From Escherichia phage 310Ecol104PP, in the sequence record OR062946.1: a stretch of DNA of 64,000 nucleotides; one strand, 5' to 3'. Shown here piece after piece: positions 42,783 through 57,609 of the stretch. The notes under the pieces are model-generated. The model worked only from the letters and a program-made list of their open reading frames with translations, was not told the origin of the DNA and ran no database searches. The stretch's first letter is position 1; every line of letters begins with the position of its first letter. Made by a program: the position numbers and the translations under genes.

Positions 42783-42991
42783 AACCATGTAACCTTTAAG
42801 CAATATTCTTCTACATGTTGTTTACGACCTTTCTTATCAATAAAGGTATATTCAACGAATGTTCCAATGTAGTCTTTATCTACATCATGTGGACTATTAA
42901 TTGGACATTTAGTACGGCAAATGCGTTCCCATTGACGAATAATTTCCACTTTGTTTTTAGGATCAAACGGATGTGGGTAATGTACTTTCAT
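42779..42991 (-). CDS. hypothetical protein, 70 aa
   Basis: ORF track. Confidence 0.5.
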   Translation of the reverse strand: MKVHYPHPFDPKNKVEIIRQWERICRTKCPINSPHDVDKDYIGTFVEYTFIDKKGRKQHVEEYCLKVTWL

Positions 42992-43442
42992 AATCCACCA
43001 CTATTAAATCAATATCAGGAGTAAACATGTCGATTAATTTAGAAACCTTATCCCAATCGCCGCCAGCAATACCACAACCTATGCGTGGAATGTAAATTAC
43101 TGGTTTAAACAAAAGGGTTTCTGCCTGTAGATTTAATTCTATCATGCAGTTTACTAAAGCACCATAATCAAGATTAGGACCTGGTTCGTATTGCGTATAC
43201 AGGTTATAGCATATACCAAAACCATTAGGTTTATGTTTAAAAACAATAGACATATCGCCTAATTTATCACGAGAACCGTACTCAGTAGTGGTTTTATCTA
43301 TTTCTAAAATTTTGGGATAGGCTCTTGCTAATTGACCAGCTACACCTGAACCCATAGTATGAAAACAATTGCACCCGTGCGCAATAATATTACCTTGAAG
43401 AAATAGGGCGACAATATCGCCCTTGATATATTTTACAATCAT
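42963..43442 (-). CDS. macro-domain protein (ADP-ribose binding/processing fold)
   Basis: 159 aa; GCNCFHTMGSGVAGQ and IGCGIAGGDW resemble macrodomain signature. Confidence 0.6.
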   Translation of the reverse strand: MIVKYIKGDIVALFLQGNIIAHGCNCFHTMGSGVAGQLARAYPKILEIDKTTTEYGSRDKLGDMSIVFKHKPNGFGICYNLYTQYEPGPNLDYGALVNCMIELNLQAETLLFKPVIYIPRIGCGIAGGDWDKVSKLIDMFTPDIDLIVVDYESTLPTSV

Positions 43443-43780
43443 CTAGTACTCAATCCTCGATTATAAGAATCTACCAAACGGTCAACCATTGAATGACAAG
43501 CGGCTTTATCTTTCTCCTCCGCAACTGAACATTCTAAGGTATTCCACTTTTTAGCATATCGTTTTAACAATGTATCATTTTTGTATCTGCTTGATTTATC
43601 TCTTTCTCCGTCTTTATATGCATATATTAATTTCTGCGCAAATTCAGCTTGGCATGCTTTATTTTTCCCGCAATAATCCGCTGCAGTACGGTTTACATAC
43701 TCTCTAATTTCAGTATATGATGTATCTGCTAACGCAGAAAATGAAATTAATCCTATACATAAAACCAAAATTTTAGTCAT
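43439..43780 (-). CDS. secreted small protein, 113 aa
   Basis: signal peptide MTKILVLCIGLISFSALA; 4 Cys. Confidence 0.5.
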   Translation of the reverse strand: MTKILVLCIGLISFSALADTSYTEIREYVNRTAADYCGKNKACQAEFAQKLIYAYKDGERDKSSRYKNDTLLKRYAKKWNTLECSVAEEKDKAACHSMVDRLVDSYNRGLSTR

Positions 43781-44318
43781 TTACTATTTCCAAAAGTTTA
43801 TTATTTTTAAGGTAATTAGCCTTTTCTAGGACTTCAGAAGCATATTTAGAACCTGCTTTAACATTCCATCCCGAATTATAAGAGGATATTGCTTTTCTTA
43901 TATCGCCCTTATGTATATTTAACCAATAAGAAAGTTCAATGTACGCCCAGGAAGCTGAATTGGACCGTTTATTCAACATTCTTTTTATTTCAGCATCGGT
44001 CATATTATAACCAAGTTCCTTAACTCTTGCTCGCATAGTAGGCAAATAATTTTGGAACATTCCGTAGGCGTGATGCTTTGGTTTAGATTTTAAATTAACT
44101 CCGCCAGAGCTTTCTTGCCATAAAATAGCAGCCATTATATGACCTAATCCGCTCTTGTGGATATTTTTGTGTGTTTTATATTTTCCATCCTTAGAAAATT
44201 GTTCCCCGAATTGATACGCGTAACGCATGTTATCGAGTTGGACATTACTGAAAGTATGCTCGGAGCTATGTGCCATCATTGAAATGGCCAATAGACCAGC
44301 GAGTAGTGCTTTTCTCAT
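43773..44318 (-). CDS. secreted lysozyme-like/lytic-transglycosylase-like protein
   Basis: 181 aa; signal peptide; AAILWQESSGG resembles SLT catalytic motif. Confidence 0.5.
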   Translation of the reverse strand: MRKALLAGLLAISMMAHSSEHTFSNVQLDNMRYAYQFGEQFSKDGKYKTHKNIHKSGLGHIMAAILWQESSGGVNLKSKPKHHAYGMFQNYLPTMRARVKELGYNMTDAEIKRMLNKRSNSASWAYIELSYWLNIHKGDIRKAISSYNSGWNVKAGSKYASEVLEKANYLKNNKLLEIVND

Positions 44319-44325
44319 GCTTACC

Positions 44326-44787
44326 TCATTGAGTTTTAATTACTGCTTTAGAAGCCTTTCCTGGTAAACGACGACTGTTGATAATTGCCATCCTACATTG
44401 AAGTGACGGGTCTTTGAATTTCGCATTAGGTTTACAAACTGTAAATCCAAGCCAAAGATTTCCATCTGTGATTTCTAAACGTCCAGGACGATATTCAACC
44501 CCATCAATAAAATCCTCGTCAATGTCAGGACGCGGAGGCATACTCAGGAATTCATTAACTTCTAAAACATGGTCTTTTATTTTATGGAATAATTCAAAAA
44601 CATATGTCTCATCAATCTCCCGTTGAATTGCGCGATCAAGAAGATGCTGAGAATATTTTAGATGAAACGATGAGACCCCTGCTGCTTTTGATGCCTCACG
44701 AATCTCATTGTTAATTTGACGAAACTCCGACTCAAAGTGACGACGAAGCTTATTTCGACGGATAAAAACTTCTGTATTGATAGTCAT
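44326..44787 (-). CDS. regB: RegB endoribonuclease
   Basis: 153 aa MTINTEVFIRRNKLRRHFESEFRQINNEIREASKAAG; matches recalled T4 RegB. Confidence 0.9.
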   Translation of the reverse strand: MTINTEVFIRRNKLRRHFESEFRQINNEIREASKAAGVSSFHLKYSQHLLDRAIQREIDETYVFELFHKIKDHVLEVNEFLSMPPRPDIDEDFIDGVEYRPGRLEITDGNLWLGFTVCKPNAKFKDPSLQCRMAIINSRRLPGKASKAVIKTQ

Positions 44788-44814: not shown

Positions 44815-44844
44815 ATTATACCACAGTCAAGAGGAAAAGTAAAC
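44815..44844 (-). promoter_or_regulatory. T4-type early promoter of regB
   Basis: GTTTAC, 18 nt, TATAAT. Confidence 0.6.
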
Positions 44845-44846
44845 AG

Positions 44847-45125
44847 TTATTCTTTAAATCTAATCAATTTATTCATAGACTTTGAAACTTCTGCATGAAC
44901 CTCATGTAAGTTTTTAAGCTGTTCAAGACGCTGTTCATAGTAAGCAATTTCATCTTCTTCGAGACAGTCCTGTGAATCTTCTTTAAGATAACGTGCATAG
45001 TCCTGAAAAGCTTTACGGACTACTTCCTGGAAGTCATCAAGACTTTGAATTTTCTTAGGAGCGGCAGATACACGACGAGGTGCAGTATAATACTCATAAC
45101 CAAACCCTGCGCTTAATTGAGCCAT
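44847..45125 (-). CDS. hypothetical protein, about 92 aa
   Basis: likely start ATG 45125 ([13 protein letters not shown]), TAATG overlap. Confidence 0.5.
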
Positions 45126-45391
45126 TAGTATTTTTCCTCTGGTTGGAACACAGCACGGCAAGCCCACATACTTGCTTCTTTGAGTTTCGTTTTAGCAATA
45201 GTTAACTGATCGAGGCTTTCGGCGTAATTCTTCGCGAGTTCATCATCTTCACAGCTATCAAATGCTTCCCAAAATTCATCGTATAAAGCGTCAAAGATAA
45301 GTCCTAAACGAACTTCAGCGTCTTTGATAGCATTCACTTTACCGATTTTCTCTTCAGTATGCGGCTTATAACCCTTAATATCTTCAATCAT
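45125..45391 (-). CDS. small acidic protein at T4 vs.4 position (candidate Acb2-type cyclic-oligonucleotide sponge)
   Basis: 88 aa; positional only (second gene upstream of regB). Confidence 0.45.
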
Positions 45392-45605
45392 ATTTTACTT
45401 CCTCACCAGTACCTAAATCATATTCAACTAAACGAATAGGTTCATGAATGCCATATCCCTGAACAGAAATTTCTGTCGTAGGATAAATTCCATCAATATC
45501 ACCCATATTCCATGCTTCATTAAATTGCTGTTCGCCTGAATTACTAAACCATTCGGCGAAAGCATTTAGCACATCTTCAGAACCTTCAATAATTATCTTT
45601 GCCAT
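45384..45605 (-). CDS. hypothetical protein, 73 aa
   Basis: ORF track. Confidence 0.5.
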   Translation of the reverse strand: MAKIIIEGSEDVLNAFAEWFSNSGEQQFNEAWNMGDIDGIYPTTEISVQGYGIHEPIRLVEYDLGTGEEVKYD

Positions 45606-45967
45606 TACAGACTCTCGGTAAAGGTACGAGCGATAACGTCGCGCTGCTGTTCCGGAGTCAGAGAGTTAAAGCGAACTGCATAACCGGATACACGGATGGT
45701 CAGCTGCGGATATTTTTCCGGATGCTTAACTGCATCTTCCAGAGTTTCACGACGCAGAACGTTTACGTTCAGGTGTTGACCACCTTCAATTTTAACTGTA
45801 GGTTGTGTTTCAATTTCAATTTCACGGGCATGTAAACCGTAGAAAATTTCTGGGTCTACAAAAGAGTCCTCTTTAAAGGTTTTAGAGACAATAATTCGTG
45901 CTTGAATACCGTCTTCAAAATAAATAGTACCTTTATGTGTGCCTTCAAGAATTTGATATGCTTTCAT
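45605..45967 (-). CDS. autonomous glycyl radical cofactor (GrcA/YfiD homolog)
   Basis: 120 aa; C-terminal [60 protein letters not shown] matches recalled E. coli GrcA. Confidence 0.85.
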
Positions 45968-45974
45968 ATAAACC

Positions 45975-46304
45975 TCAATTAGAAAATAAATTTATCCAAG
46001 ATTGTTCTTTAATTAAAAATGGCTCAGAATCATATGCCATTAAACTCTGTGTGATTAGTCCTTTAAAAGGCCCATCAATAAATTCCATGGTAAAATATGG
46101 AATTTTATTCATTAGCCGTGCATTAGGAGCAGTACATAAAACTCTGCATCCTTTGAATACACCTTTTTGTAATTTGTATTGCTTGGGATAAAATTCGCTC
46201 AAAATGTTGTTATTTGCCAAAATTTCAAAATGATTCACCAATTTATTTTTAATAGTTTTTGGCGAAAAATAAAGATATTCGAAAAGCTGTGTGTCTGTCA
46301 TCAT
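45975..46304 (-). CDS. hypothetical protein, about 109 aa
   Basis: likely start ATG 46304, ATGA overlap with upstream stop. Confidence 0.5.
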
Positions 46305-46840
46305 TGCATTCCGATTACGAAAAACTGCGGACGAGTAATACCACCAATGCAACATTTACTATTACAGCAGTAGTGTACAGTGTCAATATGGACGCTATAA
46401 ATCTTATCCATATCAGGAGATTTGACAGGCTCATCGATTATATACAAAATTCGCGAAAGCGATAAACCTCTGAACTTACTTCCTTTATTACCAATAAAAC
46501 TGCGCACAGAATCAGTAAATAAACGAAAACGTATATCATCATTAGAATAACGCGAAAATTCCTTTTTAATGTTATTTGCAGAAATTTTAGCGTAAGCTGA
46601 AGTATTAGAAAGAACAATAACTGTTCCGCCATCATACAGCCAATTAGCAGCAAAGTTAGTCACAGCAATTGATTTACCGGATTGACGTCCACCATCTATA
46701 CGAAGTGTGCAGTACTGTTTAAGTAATTCTTCAAATGGCGGGATATATTCGTTTTTACAAATTTCTTCTACTCTAGCATCAGAATGGTGTGTAAAAGCAT
46801 TCATCAGGGATAGATACGGGCCAGTTAAAAATGTTCTCAT
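46301..46840 (-). CDS. P-loop NTPase with C-terminal Cys cluster, about 179 aa
   Basis: Walker A GGRQSGKS, Walker B-like ILYIIDEP, HYCCNSKCC; start chosen at ATG 46840 (MRTFLTG). Confidence 0.55.
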   Translation of the reverse strand: MRTFLTGPYLSLMNAFTHHSDARVEEICKNEYIPPFEELLKQYCTLRIDGGRQSGKSIAVTNFAANWLYDGGTVIVLSNTSAYAKISANNIKKEFSRYSNDDIRFRLFTDSVRSFIGNKGSKFRGLSLSRILYIIDEPVKSPDMDKIYSVHIDTVHYCCNSKCCIGGITRPQFFVIGMQ

Positions 46841-46981
46841 TTTATTCTCTCTAAATTTGGGCCATTCCATGGCGCATGAATTGTCCATTTCTGTATTTAC
46901 CCATTACCGCACTCAGGCTCGACCTTATTACAGGTTGGCGGGAATCCCTTATAGAATCATAAGGTCCAGGTTGTTCCCATA

Positions 46982-47455
46982 TTATTTGAATGATTTGACG
47001 TACTGAATAGAACCTTTACTATTCACAAAGGCAATTTTACCATTTTTGTTATACATGGTAGCAGTACGTTGATAACCATAAGTTTGTTTACCAGATTGAT
47101 AACCAACTAATGCAAAATTATCTTCACCCATTTTATTCTGCTTAGCGCGAATGCGTTCATGGCCATGTGCCATAAGAACCTTAGCATCACCCGTTGCAAT
47201 GGATCTACGAGTTTTTTCATCTTCAACTGTATTAACAAAGTCGTCAAATGAATCAAATTTAGCATGAGATTTATTATACAGTTTTCCATCTACTGCATAA
47301 TTATATCCTTGTACATCCATCTCAACTTCTGTACCGTCATCCAATACAGCAGTGATTTTCTGTCCTTTTTTAAATTTCAAAAGATCAGTAAAAGATTCAG
47401 CAATAATTTGAGAATTAATAGCTGCTTCAGTAATAAATTCTTGATATGTTTTCAT
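46982..47455 (-). CDS. internal (capsid-injected) protein with capsid targeting sequence
   Basis: 157 aa; N-term MKTYQEFITEA matches T4 CTS consensus MKTYQEFIAEA. Confidence 0.65.
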   Translation of the reverse strand: MKTYQEFITEAAINSQIIAESFTDLLKFKKGQKITAVLDDGTEVEMDVQGYNYAVDGKLYNKSHAKFDSFDDFVNTVEDEKTRRSIATGDAKVLMAHGHERIRAKQNKMGEDNFALVGYQSGKQTYGYQRTATMYNKNGKIAFVNSKGSIQYVKSFK

Positions 47456-47471
47456 GTGTATCCTTTAATTT

Positions 47472-47789
47472 TTATTCTTTAGGGAAGTTTTTAGAATATG
47501 CATCATAAAGCTTATTTCCAATACGGCGGAAAACTCTAGCCGCAAAACGATTTTCTGGGTTTTTAATCATGATTTGCATCATATAAGTACCCGCGTCAGA
47601 AAGAGCTTCTTCATAGTACCCGTTAATTTCTTTAAGAGTCCTACGTTTACCACCAGGACCATCAACAGTGATTTTCCATTTACCTGTAGAAGTGCGACTT
47701 GGCGGCTCAACTTGTTCAATCCAGATATAACCACCTTCTACACGTTGTCCTGCAGCAGATTCTGCAATAAATTCTTTATACGTTTTCAT
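47472..47789 (-). CDS. internal (capsid-injected) protein with capsid targeting sequence
   Basis: 105 aa; N-term MKTYKEFIAES; basic. Confidence 0.65.
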   Translation of the reverse strand: MKTYKEFIAESAAGQRVEGGYIWIEQVEPPSRTSTGKWKITVDGPGGKRRTLKEINGYYEEALSDAGTYMMQIMIKNPENRFAARVFRRIGNKLYDAYSKNFPKE

Positions 47790-47825
47790 GTGTTTCCTTT
47801 AAATATTTTAATTAGTAACTGTGAA

Positions 47826-47855
47826 TATACTATCACAGTTCTAGGAGAAAGTAAA
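47826..47855 (-). promoter_or_regulatory. T4-type early promoter
   Basis: GTTTAC, 18 nt, TAGTAT; -10 in loop of perfect 8-nt inverted repeat AACTGTGA/TCACAGTT. Confidence 0.55.
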
Positions 47856-47860
47856 CAACT

Positions 47861-48391
<531 letters not shown>

Positions 48392-48847
48392 TTAAAAGAG
48401 GTTGTTCATTATTCGGTAAAGTGAAGGACCCATCACATATTGCCACTGAGTGCGAGGAATAAGAGCAAAAGCATCCATCTCTGGAATCATAACGCCATCT
48501 TTATTTTCAAAATAAGACTCGCAATGGCAATTTCTGAACATCTCATGCTCTACTGGAATCGTATAATAAAACAACTGTAGGTCTTTATTACTAGAATATT
48601 TAAATACACCTAGGTCTTCTAGAAGGTCTGGATTATAATTGCTAAAACCGGTCTCTTCTAAGCATTCTCTTCGTGCTGCATCTAATGCGCTTAAATCAGA
48701 ATTTTCTACACGGCCCTTTGGAATATCCCAACGATGTGCCATCATTCCAGGCTTACGAGAACCAGTAACCCGACCCATAAATAAATCTTTATCTTCTGTC
48801 ATAAAAATAATACCAGCTGATAATGTTTTCATTTTAATTTCCTGCAT
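48392..48847 (-). CDS. nudE: Nudix hydrolase NudE
   Basis: 151 aa; Nudix box GRVENSDLSALDAARRECLEETG. Confidence 0.85.
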   Translation of the reverse strand: MQEIKMKTLSAGIIFMTEDKDLFMGRVTGSRKPGMMAHRWDIPKGRVENSDLSALDAARRECLEETGFSNYNPDLLEDLGVFKYSSNKDLQLFYYTIPVEHEMFRNCHCESYFENKDGVMIPEMDAFALIPRTQWQYVMGPSLYRIMNNLF

Positions 48848-54024: not shown

Positions 54025-54101
<77 letters not shown>

Positions 54102-54105
54102 TATT

Positions 54106-54180
54106 TGGCGGACGTGATAGGATTCGAACCTATAACCAATCGCTTAACAGGCGATCGCTCTGCCATTGAGCTACACATCC
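54106..54180 (-). tRNA. tRNA-Asn (anticodon GUU)
   Basis: manual fold: acceptor GGATGTG/CACGTCC, D-arm GCTC-AATGGCA-GAGC, anticodon loop CTGTTAA, T-loop TTCGAAT, CCA encoded. Confidence 0.8.
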
Positions 54181-54184
54181 AAAT

Positions 54185-54271
54185 TGGTGGGGAGTGATGG
54201 AGTCGAACCACCCGAGTCGCAATGACAATGGATTTACAGTCCACACCGCTACCTCTACGGGATAACTCCCC
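54185..54271 (-). tRNA. tRNA-Tyr-like (anticodon GUA), long variable arm
   Basis: perfect acceptor GGGGAGT/ACTCCCC, anticodon loop CTGTAAA, variable stem GTC/GAC, T-loop TTCGACT, CCA; D-arm irregular. Confidence 0.6.
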
Positions 54272-54280
54272 AAATTAATT

Positions 54281-54355
54281 TGGTGGCCCTGGGTGGAATT
54301 GAACCACCATCTGGCGATTATGAGTCGCTTGCTTGAACCTTCCAGCTACAGGGCC
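54281..54355 (-). tRNA. tRNA with CAU anticodon (Ile-lysidine or Met; T4 tRNA-Ile position)
   Basis: acceptor GGCCCTG/CAGGGCC, anticodon loop CTCATAA, T-loop TTCAATT, CCA; 1 nt after tRNA-Thr. Confidence 0.85.
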
Positions 54356-54356
54356 T

Positions 54357-54432
54357 TGGTGCTGATTGACGGAATCGAACCGCCGACCTTCTCATTACAA
54401 GTGAGTTGCTCTACCTACTGAGCTAAATCAGC
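54357..54432 (-). tRNA. tRNA-Thr (anticodon UGU)
   Basis: acceptor GCTGATT/AATCAGC, anticodon loop CTTGTAA, T-loop TTCGATT, CCA encoded. Confidence 0.9.
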
Positions 54433-54437
54433 AAAAC

Positions 54438-54527
54438 TGGCGGAGGCGATAGGATTTGAACCTATGAGTCGCCGGAGCGACTGCCGGTTTTCAAGACCGG
54501 TGCATTAAACCACTCTGCCACGCCTCC
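54438..54527 (-). tRNA. tRNA-Ser (anticodon UGA), long variable arm
   Basis: acceptor GGAGGCG/CGCCTCC, anticodon stem CCGGT/ACCGG loop CTTGAAA, T-loop TTCAAAT, CCA. Confidence 0.9.
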
Positions 54528-54529
54528 AG

Positions 54530-54603
54530 TCTCCATACAAGGATTTGAACCTTGGACCTCCTGATCCCAAATCAGGCGCTCTACCAAACTGAGCTACACG
54601 GAG
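54530..54603 (-). tRNA. tRNA-Pro (anticodon UGG), CCA not encoded
   Basis: anticodon loop TTTGGGA, T-loop TTCAAAT; 3' end abuts tRNA-Ser (dimeric precursor as in T4). Confidence 0.88.
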
Positions 54604-54613
54604 TAAATTAAAT

Positions 54614-54687
<74 letters not shown>

Positions 54688-54692
54688 AAATT

Positions 54693-54779
54693 TGGTGCGA
54701 GAAGTGGGACTCGAACCCACAAGGAAATCATTCCGCAGCATTTTAAGTGCTGTGCCTTTACCAATTTGACCATTCTCGC
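54693..54779 (-). tRNA. tRNA-Leu (anticodon UAA), long variable arm
   Basis: acceptor GCGAGAA/TTCTCGC, anticodon loop CTTAAAA, T-loop TTCGAGT, CCA. Confidence 0.9.
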
Positions 54780-54780
54780 G

Positions 54781-54853
54781 CTGGGAATAAAGGACTCGAA
54801 CCTTTGCATCCTGGAATCAAAATCCAGTGCCTTACCAACTTGGCTAATTCCCA
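54781..54853 (-). tRNA. tRNA-Gln (anticodon UUG), CCA not encoded
   Basis: 5' UGGGAAU, anticodon loop TTTTGAT, T-loop TTCGAGT; 3' end abuts tRNA-Leu (dimeric precursor). Confidence 0.9.
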
Positions 54854-55898: not shown

Positions 55899-56123
55899 TT
55901 ATTCAACACCAGCGGCTTTCAAAAGTTTCTTAAGATTGGCAACACCTTGAGCAGAAAATGTGACCTTTCCACCTTTTTCACTGATAGAACCAACCAATTT
56001 AGCAAGTTTATCATTAGGAATTTTTTTAAAATCAGCCAATGTTCCATCAAAGGTTTTTGAAACAAAAGGCAGTTCATCTTCATGTCTTTTAGCTTCTACA
56101 ATAAATTTTTGATATGTTTTCAT
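55899..56123 (-). CDS. internal protein (CTS-bearing), about 74 aa, ipI-locus member
   Basis: start ATG 56123; N-term MKTYQKFIVEA. Confidence 0.65.
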   Translation of the reverse strand: MKTYQKFIVEAKRHEDELPFVSKTFDGTLADFKKIPNDKLAKLVGSISEKGGKVTFSAQGVANLKKLLKAAGVE

Positions 56124-56150
56124 TTTAGTTTCCATTTAGATGTTTTGTTT

Positions 56151-56180
56151 TGATAGGGTAATAATATCACTACCCCATCT
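56151..56180 (-). promoter_or_regulatory. T4-type early promoter
   Basis: GTTTAC, 18 nt, TATTAT. Confidence 0.55.
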
Positions 56181-56200
56181 AAAAGTAAACAGTTTATAAA

Positions 56201-56509
56201 CTATTTTATTCCGCGTGATGCAATTGTGTTCTGCCGTTTAACGCCAGTTTGTTTAAAGTCATGATTGTCGATTTGATCGGTACGAGCAACTCCGAATGAT
56301 GATTTGATTTTAGCCTTAGATCCTTTAGTTATAGAAATAAACATCTCGGAAGCCCCTTTCTTAAAGTCCGAGGCGATTACTTCAACGCCGTTCTTAGCAA
56401 GTGACTTCAGAATTGCCTCTGCATACTCATCGTCAAGACTCGTCTGAGTATTAATAACGAATGTCTTTGGCGCAGCCGCTTCATTGATAAATTCTTTAAA
56501 TGTTTTCAT
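56201..56509 (-). CDS. internal protein (CTS-bearing), 102 aa, ipI-locus member
   Basis: N-term MKTFKEFINEA. Confidence 0.65.
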   Translation of the reverse strand: MKTFKEFINEAAAPKTFVINTQTSLDDEYAEAILKSLAKNGVEVIASDFKKGASEMFISITKGSKAKIKSSFGVARTDQIDNHDFKQTGVKRQNTIASRGIK

Positions 56510-56539
56510 TTTATTTTCCTAATTAATTTTGATGAGATA

Positions 56540-56569
56540 ATAGTACCACAACCCTATTTAAAAGTAAAC
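56540..56569 (-). promoter_or_regulatory. T4-type early promoter
   Basis: GTTTAC, 18 nt, TACTAT. Confidence 0.55.
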
Positions 56570-56842
56570 TCATTTTAAATAAATTGCGTATTTTTTATAA
56601 CCCGCTGACTCATGACGAAGACCCTTATCATTAGCAAAACGCTCAATGTTGTTAATTTGATTCTGGTCAAGTTCAGAGATGTCAAACACGAAAAAGTTAC
56701 GTTTGTTACCAACTGTTACATAGTCAGTTAAATCAATATCATATAGGTAATTGATGTCAGCAATCAAAGTCTTGACAGCTTTGCTAATTTTTACTTTTTC
56801 GTTAAAAGCAGCTTCAGCAATAAATTCTTGATACGTTTTCAT
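56570..56842 (-). CDS. internal protein (CTS-bearing), 90 aa, ipI-locus member
   Basis: N-term MKTYQEFIAEA (exact T4 CTS consensus). Confidence 0.7.
   Translation of the reverse strand: MKTYQEFIAEAAFNEKVKISKAVKTLIADINYLYDIDLTDYVTVGNKRNFFVFDISELDQNQINNIERFANDKGLRHESAGYKKYAIYLK

Positions 56843-56912: not shown

Positions 56913-57609
<697 letters not shown>

Follow-up and report, generated by a model that had tools for sequence, protein, structure and literature searches.

A T4 vs.4 (acb2) orthologue, encoding a predicted anti-CBASS cyclic-dinucleotide sponge, in Escherichia phage 310Ecol104PP

Escherichia phage 310Ecol104PP carries a short gene for an acidic protein close to the endoribonuclease gene regB. 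The locus raises the question of whether this protein is the counterpart of T4 Vs.4 and, if so, how much of what is known of the T4 protein applies to it. T4 Vs.4 is a cGAMP sponge, and it and its homologues have been termed Acb2 (PMC10097602; PMC10449767; PMC12657218, where the gene is written 'acb2/vs.4'). An earlier note had proposed, from gene position alone, that the gene occupies the vs.4 position of T4 and encodes a candidate cyclic-oligonucleotide sponge of the Acb2 type. The analysis described here covered a 64,000-nucleotide stretch of the phage DNA (OR062946.1), called the window below. It leads to the conclusion, which we hold with a probability of about 95%, that the gene is the Tequatrovirus orthologue of T4 vs.4 (acb2), encoding a hexameric cyclic-dinucleotide sponge that counters CBASS. 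The gene is an already known and characterised one; there is nothing new in it, and the exact protein is present in public genomes.

The vs.4 locus and its surroundings

The features needed for the argument are listed here, with window coordinates.

45125..45391, minus strand: vs.4 (acb2) coding sequence, 88 amino acids plus TAA; Acb2-family protein, predicted cyclic-dinucleotide sponge (open reading frame, PDB, Pfam, PHROG, AF2 and Foldseek)
45400..45404, minus strand: putative Shine-Dalgarno sequence GAGGA, 8 nt before the vs.4 ATG and within the 3' end of vs.5, read from the sequence ...GGTGAGGAAGTAAAATATG
45384..45605, minus strand: vs.5, 73 amino acids, the upstream neighbour (open reading frame; PHROG 1986, E 6e-43; labelled vs.5 in the RB14 slot)
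44847..45125, minus strand: vs.3, 92 amino acids from an ATG at 45125, the downstream neighbour (PHROG 2037, E 1e-39; vs.3 of RB14 is 279 nt)
44326..44787, minus strand: regB endoribonuclease, the positional landmark of the earlier note (Pfam PF10715 REGB_T4, 230 bits)
43773..44318: SLT-domain protein in the vs.1 slot (Pfam)
45605..45967, minus strand: GrcA/YfiD-like autonomous glycyl-radical cofactor in the vs.6 slot, two genes upstream of vs.4 (PF01228, 67 bits)
47861..48355: T4-type lysozyme (e)
56913..57368, minus strand: acb1 (T4 gene 57B slot), cyclic-oligonucleotide phosphodiesterase (PDB 7T26 Acb1, E 4.1e-62; Pfam PF23474 Acb1, 202.7 bits)

The vs.4 reading frame runs on the minus strand from an ATG at 45391 to a TAA at 45125, a total of 88 intact codons. 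Its product contains 20 D/E and 12 K/R residues, giving a calculated pI of 4.58. Only vs.3 lies between it and regB, hence vs.4 is the second gene upstream of regB; in all of this the description in the earlier note was accurate. Since the DNA of this phage is AT-rich, an open reading frame of 88 codons is weak evidence by itself. The homology is far beyond chance, with an E value of 1.7e-53 to a solved structure and tblastn matches in 1237 phage records. The start of vs.4 overlaps the TGA stop of vs.5 by 8 nt, and the last base of its TAA is the first base of the vs.3 ATG (TAATG). On the sequence, these start and stop overlaps are consistent with translational coupling of vs.5, vs.4 and vs.3 in a co-translated polycistronic block.

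In RB14, the annotation of which uses T4 gene names, the order is vs, vs.1, regB, vs.3, vs.4 (267 nt), vs.5, vs.6, vs.7, vs.8, Ip4 and e. The order and lengths of vs.5, vs.4, vs.3 and regB in the window match those of RB14, and the genes lie on the early-gene strand. In the T4 record the PHROG order is likewise 1986, 717 and 2037. What had been a guess from position was thereby upheld, both by the gene order and sizes in RB14 and by the identity of 84 of the 88 residues to T4 Vs.4. The 24 kb around vs.4 match many Tequatrovirus genomes at 95–98% identity, most closely Escherichia phage FriedrichMiescher (98.1% identity over 95% of the query), whose bas39_* locus tags mark it as Bas39 of the BASEL collection.

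With respect to transcription, a scan for the sigma-70 consensus, considered with a dedicated vs.4 promoter in mind, was overall not above chance (18 sites found, 21 expected). Upstream of vs.4 within the vs block the only sigma-70-like site is at 46386..46358 on the minus strand, inside vs.8, and a regB-proximal site is at 44843..44815. The MotA-box middle-promoter pattern is enriched in the window, with 13 matches against 2.4 expected; none was found on the minus strand of 45391–48500, which extends from vs.4 to gene e. An Rfam scan of the whole window returned the tRNA cluster only and nothing at or near vs.4. That cluster, at 54028..54853 on the minus strand, consists of 10 tRNA genes, the lowest-scoring of which reaches 30.2 bits (cut-off 29); 11 tRNAs are annotated in the equivalent cluster of the closest relative, Bas39.

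Several other genes of the window deserve mention in their own right. The vs.7 reading frame (45975..46355, minus strand), 126 amino acids from its first ATG, overlaps the 3' end of vs.8 (46301..46888, minus strand) by 55 nt. Translation probably begins at an internal ATG close to 46301–46304, because vs.7 is annotated as 327–330 nt in RB14 and Bas39. Between vs.8 and the lysozyme gene e, two minus-strand genes (46982..47455 and 47472..47789) encode proteins that start MKTYQEFI... and MKTYKEFI..., and three open reading frames at 55899..56842 have similar MKTY/MKTF motifs at or near the start. The protein of 46982..47455 is a DUF7412 protein (319 bits) in the slot of Ip4 in RB14. We take the MKTY/MKTF proteins to resemble T4 internal head proteins, with a capsid-targeting leader. 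In T4 the vs.8–e interval contains denV; no denV-like open reading frame was seen in this interval of the window, as in RB14. Just downstream of vs, in the tk.4 slot, 42963..43442 on the minus strand encodes a 159-residue protein with a Macro domain (PF01661, 33 bits; cut-off 22). Binding or hydrolysis of ADP-ribose derivatives is a possible activity of this protein, and would make it another counter-defence candidate.

Family membership, fold and functional residues

A sequence search of the PDB aligned the protein over its full length with 7UQ2, the crystallised T4 Vs.4 (84 of 88 residues identical, E 1.7e-53). Alignment with T4 Vs.4/Acb2 was the check that the earlier note had proposed, and it gives 95% identity to the entry entitled 'Vs.4 from T4 phage in complex with cGAMP'. 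The remaining PDB matches were to PaMx33 Acb2 entries only (p26; 8H2J, 8H2X, 8H39, 8IXZ-8J8O), end to end and with E about 0.05. A single Pfam match was obtained, to the Acb2/Tad1 hairpin family PF24729.2, with 71.2 bits (E 8e-20) against a gathering cut-off of 27 bits; it covers residues 7–83 and the whole profile. Similarity to the Acb2 family, on which the proposal hung, was therefore found in both 7UQ2 and PF24729. The protein also falls in PHROG 717 (E 6e-32), the group in which Jenson et al. (2023) found Vs.4 homologues. In a large protein collection it has 149 relatives, nearly all with PF24729, which are called 'vs.4' or 'Acb2/Tad1 hairpin domain-containing protein' where the source names them.

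The statement in the earlier note that Vs.4 is Acb2, a cGAMP-binding anti-CBASS sponge, agrees with the passing of the Pfam hairpin cut-off and with three publications (PMC10097602; PMC10449767; PMC12657218). Its phrase 'cyclic-oligonucleotide sponge' is too broad here, as the T4 subtype binds cyclic dinucleotides and not cA3 or cAAG (PMC10312549).

An AF2 model built with 117 of the relatives, the same set used for the conservation alignment, is a two-helix hairpin (helices 13–45 and 50–81, turn 46–49, mean pLDDT 88) flanked by short N- and C-terminal tails. When the model was compared with the PDB by Foldseek, the chains of 7UQ2 came first (E 7e-10 to 2e-9, TM 0.77–0.80), followed by PaMx33 Acb2 (8H2J and 8H2X, TM 0.71–0.74, probability 1.00). 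Below these there were only generic helical hairpins with E>0.5. Superposition of the monomer model on 7UQ2 gives an rmsd of 4.1–4.6 Å, and the tails that bear Y8, H11 and F82 have pLDDT values of about 50–64. Low values are expected there, because such segments order only in the ligand-bound hexamer. Given these tails and this rmsd, the model is not an independent confirmation of the pocket.

Crystallographic and mutational work has shown which residues matter in T4 Vs.4. Y8 and F82 stack on the bases of cGAMP, and hydrogen bonds and salt bridges are contributed by Y8, H11, K23 and R79 (Jenson et al., PMC10097602). In the same study S74N disturbed the interactions with cGAMP, T12 was identified as a helix cap, and the hexamer interfaces were found to involve L29, A66, A73, A77 and, more mildly, F33 (PMC10097602). 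The importance of the pocket was seen independently in the work on Panoptes, in which F82C and Y8A each destroyed Acb2 function (PMC12657218). The window protein has the T4 residue at each of the cGAMP positions (Y8, H11, T12, K23, S74, R79 and F82) and, as read from the sequence, at each of the interface positions (L29, F33, A66, A73 and A77). Seven of these positions (Y8, H11, K23, A66, S74, R79 and F82) do not vary among the 117 aligned homologues, and a further four (T12, L29, A73 and A77) are conserved in 90% or more. The sequence identity, the fold, the conservation of these residues and the position of the gene all mark the protein as Vs.4.

Comparison with named systems places it more exactly. 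With T4 Vs.4/Acb2 (7UQ2; Jenson et al. 2023, PMC10097602) it shares its length of 88 residues, the slot between vs.5 and vs.3, the pocket, interface and occluding residues, and the fold. It differs from the T4 protein in having F44/S46/D50/L52 at the hairpin tip, an allele that is common in public Tequatrovirus genomes. PaMx33 Acb2 (p26; 8H2J, 8H2X, 8IXZ) belongs to the same Pfam family and is also a two-helix hairpin, in which Y11 and K26 correspond to Y8 and K23 here. Its hexamer holds three cyclic dinucleotides in an architecture shared with the T4 type, but its identity to the window protein is only about 22–24%. A hexamer of PaMx33 Acb2 accommodates two cyclic trinucleotides as well, by means of R67, T74 and a kinked helix, whereas the window protein has D61 and T68 at these positions. 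Assignment to the broad-spectrum subgroup of the PaMx33/JBD67 type was rejected, since residue 61 is D rather than R and the residues of the unkinked T4-type helix are present; the protein falls in the dinucleotide-only T4 subtype. Thoeris anti-defence 1 (Tad1) is likewise a signal-sequestering sponge and has the hairpin domain to which PF24729 owes its name. Membership of Tad1 was rejected in turn: neither the PDB sequence search, at E<=1, nor the best 50 Foldseek hits contained a Tad1 chain. The window protein is the hairpin alone and groups with Vs.4/Acb2.

A homologue of Vs.4 with 77% identity is encoded by Escherichia phage tuntematon (NC_052660.1, 132700..132969), a Phapecoctavirus of the Stephanstirmvirinae that is not T4-like. 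Its divergence is confined to the hairpin tip, the pocket segments at the N- and C-termini being nearly the same as here; the neighbouring genes are labelled hypothetical. This distribution suggests, as far as sequences can tell, that acb2 may have been transferred between phage families.

Variation at the hairpin tip and constraint on the gene

Only four substitutions, L44F, N46S, C50D and F52L, separate the window protein from T4 Vs.4. In the AF2 model they sit around the turn at 46–49, which by helix geometry would be the end of the hairpin opposite the pocket residues. They fall within a hypervariable segment of the family, residues 40–65, where the mean column entropy is 2.44 bits as compared to 0.55 for residues 1–39 and 0.35 for residues 66–88. 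Comparison with seven Tequatrovirus alleles by the method of Nei and Gojobori gave pN 0.08–0.11 and pS 0.5–0.6 for codons 40–65, and pN 0–0.02 and pS 0.2–0.3 outside them. Against T4, the codons outside the tip show no nonsynonymous and 9 synonymous changes. Since pN is far below pS throughout, vs.4 is under purifying selection that is relaxed at the tip. Positive selection at the tip was considered and rejected for the same reason, pN being far below pS there as elsewhere, and relaxed constraint is preferred. The high local pS of the tip (0.5–0.6 against 0.25) is compatible with a recombined segment.

The tip allele of the window is widespread. The identical protein occurs in RB14 and Bas39, RB7, Shinka and KMB22 also gave 100% matches in tblastn, and identity to it reaches 99% or more in 63 phage records. 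The other allele, L44/N46/C50/F52, is that of T4, Bas40 and SG1; Bas40 (MZ501065) is T4-type at all four variant positions and has D45N in addition.

It might be asked whether the window protein, while a member of the same family, differs in function from T4 Vs.4 by virtue of F44/S46/D50/L52, for example in ligand range (such as a gain of cyclic-trinucleotide binding), in the stability of the hexamer, or in recognition by or escape from a host factor. The four differences are clustered within 9 residues of the hypervariable segment, and two discrete alleles co-circulate in proteins that are otherwise nearly identical, that of the window, RB14 and Bas39 and that of T4, Bas40 and SG1. The changes are also partly non-conservative, as C50D adds a charge and L44F and F52L exchange bulk, and to judge from the residues alone they may affect hexamer packing or stability. 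Against a functional difference, every pocket and interface residue defined by mutagenesis is identical to that of T4, as are the residues Y37, A57, L60, D61 and T64 that occlude a cA3 pocket. A pN/pS of about 0.15–0.2 at the tip signifies relaxed constraint rather than positive selection, and no part of the modelled hairpin lies farther from the dinucleotide pocket than the tip. On this evidence a functional distinction is quite improbable. If it did exist, the hypervariable tip would be a surface engaged in an arms race rather than simply a loop free of constraint.

The public names of the gene are of little help. Among the records listed, nearly all of those without a label of the RegB type read 'hypothetical protein' and only PV857777 reads 'anti-CBASS protein 2'. 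In several GenBank records, e.g. those of slur phages and ADUt, 'endoribonuclease', 'putative endoribonuclease' or 'Endoribonuclease RegB' is seemingly applied to vs.3, vs.4 or vs.5, and the Vs.4 homologue of vB_YenM_P8 is named 'RegB-like RNA endonuclease'. These labels were rejected for vs.4, in whose product Pfam finds no RegB domain; the proteins so labelled lack that domain, and the names seem to have spilled over in annotation from the neighbouring regB. That vs.4 is a decayed or unexpressed remnant, or has its main role apart from nucleotide sequestration, is scarcely credible: such a reading could draw on the prevalence of 'hypothetical protein' and the few 'endoribonuclease' labels, and on the fact that a promoter directly upstream of vs.4 was not identified, but the frame is intact and full-length, with a strong Shine-Dalgarno sequence and overlaps with both neighbours, the purifying selection is strong (0 nonsynonymous against 9 synonymous changes from T4 outside the tip), the ligand-contact residues are invariant over 117 homologues, and the sole Pfam match is Acb2_Tad1_hairpin, without a RegB domain.

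Predicted mechanism, ligand range and meaning

For the reading of the gene as acb2, hexamer formation, ligand binding and inhibition of CBASS by the window allele are inferred from experiments on the T4 protein, to which it is 95% identical. By this analogy, six Vs.4 hairpins would interlock to form a hexamer with three dimer interfaces, each of them forming a pocket in which one cyclic dinucleotide is clamped. Y8 and F82 would stack on the purine bases, Y8, H11, K23 and R79 would make polar contacts, and S74 would lie nearby. 3',3'-cGAMP would be held intact at tens-of-nanomolar affinity, lowering the free signal below the threshold of a CBASS effector, e.g. the phospholipase CapV; CBASS would then remain unfired and infection would proceed. 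In the T4 system, the Kd of Vs.4 for 3',3'-cGAMP was found to be about 30 nM (PMC10097602) or, in a second study, about 84 nM, and sequestration stops cGAMP from activating CapV (PMC10097602). On a host with a Cap2-defective type II CBASS, deletion of vs.4 lowered the titre of T4 approximately 50-fold (PMC10097602).

As to ligand range, T4-Acb2 and PaMx33-Acb2 share their set of cyclic dinucleotides, but T4-Acb2 does not bind cA3 or cAAG. Its failure with cA3 has been ascribed to the presence of D rather than R at 61 and to an unkinked helix, from which Y37, A57, L60, D61 and T64 intrude into the would-be pocket; a D61R change did not confer cA3 binding (PMC10312549). Since these five cA3-blocking residues are unchanged in the window protein, a dinucleotide-only spectrum is predicted for it. 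Following the T4 protein, it would be expected to bind other cyclic dinucleotides, including 2',3'-c-di-AMP, and not cA3 or cAAG.

The same binding would expose the phage to defences that employ decoy nucleotides, such as Panoptes. Panoptes OptS produces 2',3'-c-di-AMP as a decoy; its binding by T4 Acb2 releases the toxin OptE, and defence by Panoptes against T4 requires Acb2 that is competent in nucleotide binding (PMC12657218). The acb2 gene of Bas38 is another that has been assayed directly against Panoptes. Bas39, which has a Vs.4 identical to that of the window, is restricted more than 1,000-fold by the Panoptes system VnOptSE (PMC12657218). This restriction is consistent with the allele being binding-competent, by analogy with T4, the phage for which dependence on acb2 was shown, rather than Bas39.

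Like Acb2, Acb1 (T4 gene 57B; 7T26) removes the cyclic nucleotide signals of CBASS, and it is encoded in the same window, about 11.5 kb from vs.4 and just upstream of 57A and the dNMP kinase gene. Its fold is unrelated, and as a phosphodiesterase it breaks the signal down, whereas Vs.4/Acb2 binds stoichiometrically and without cleavage. Both the Acb1 nuclease and the Acb2 sponge are thus encoded by the phage, and Acb1 complements the sponge.

The value of these results lies mainly in annotation, and no new biology is implied: the gene can be named with confidence as that for anti-CBASS protein Acb2 (Vs.4). Acb2 together with Acb1 predicts resistance to CBASS systems that signal through cGAMP or other cyclic dinucleotides by sequestration, and to a wider range by degradation. 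From Acb2, sensitivity to defences of the decoy-nucleotide type, such as Panoptes, is predicted as well.
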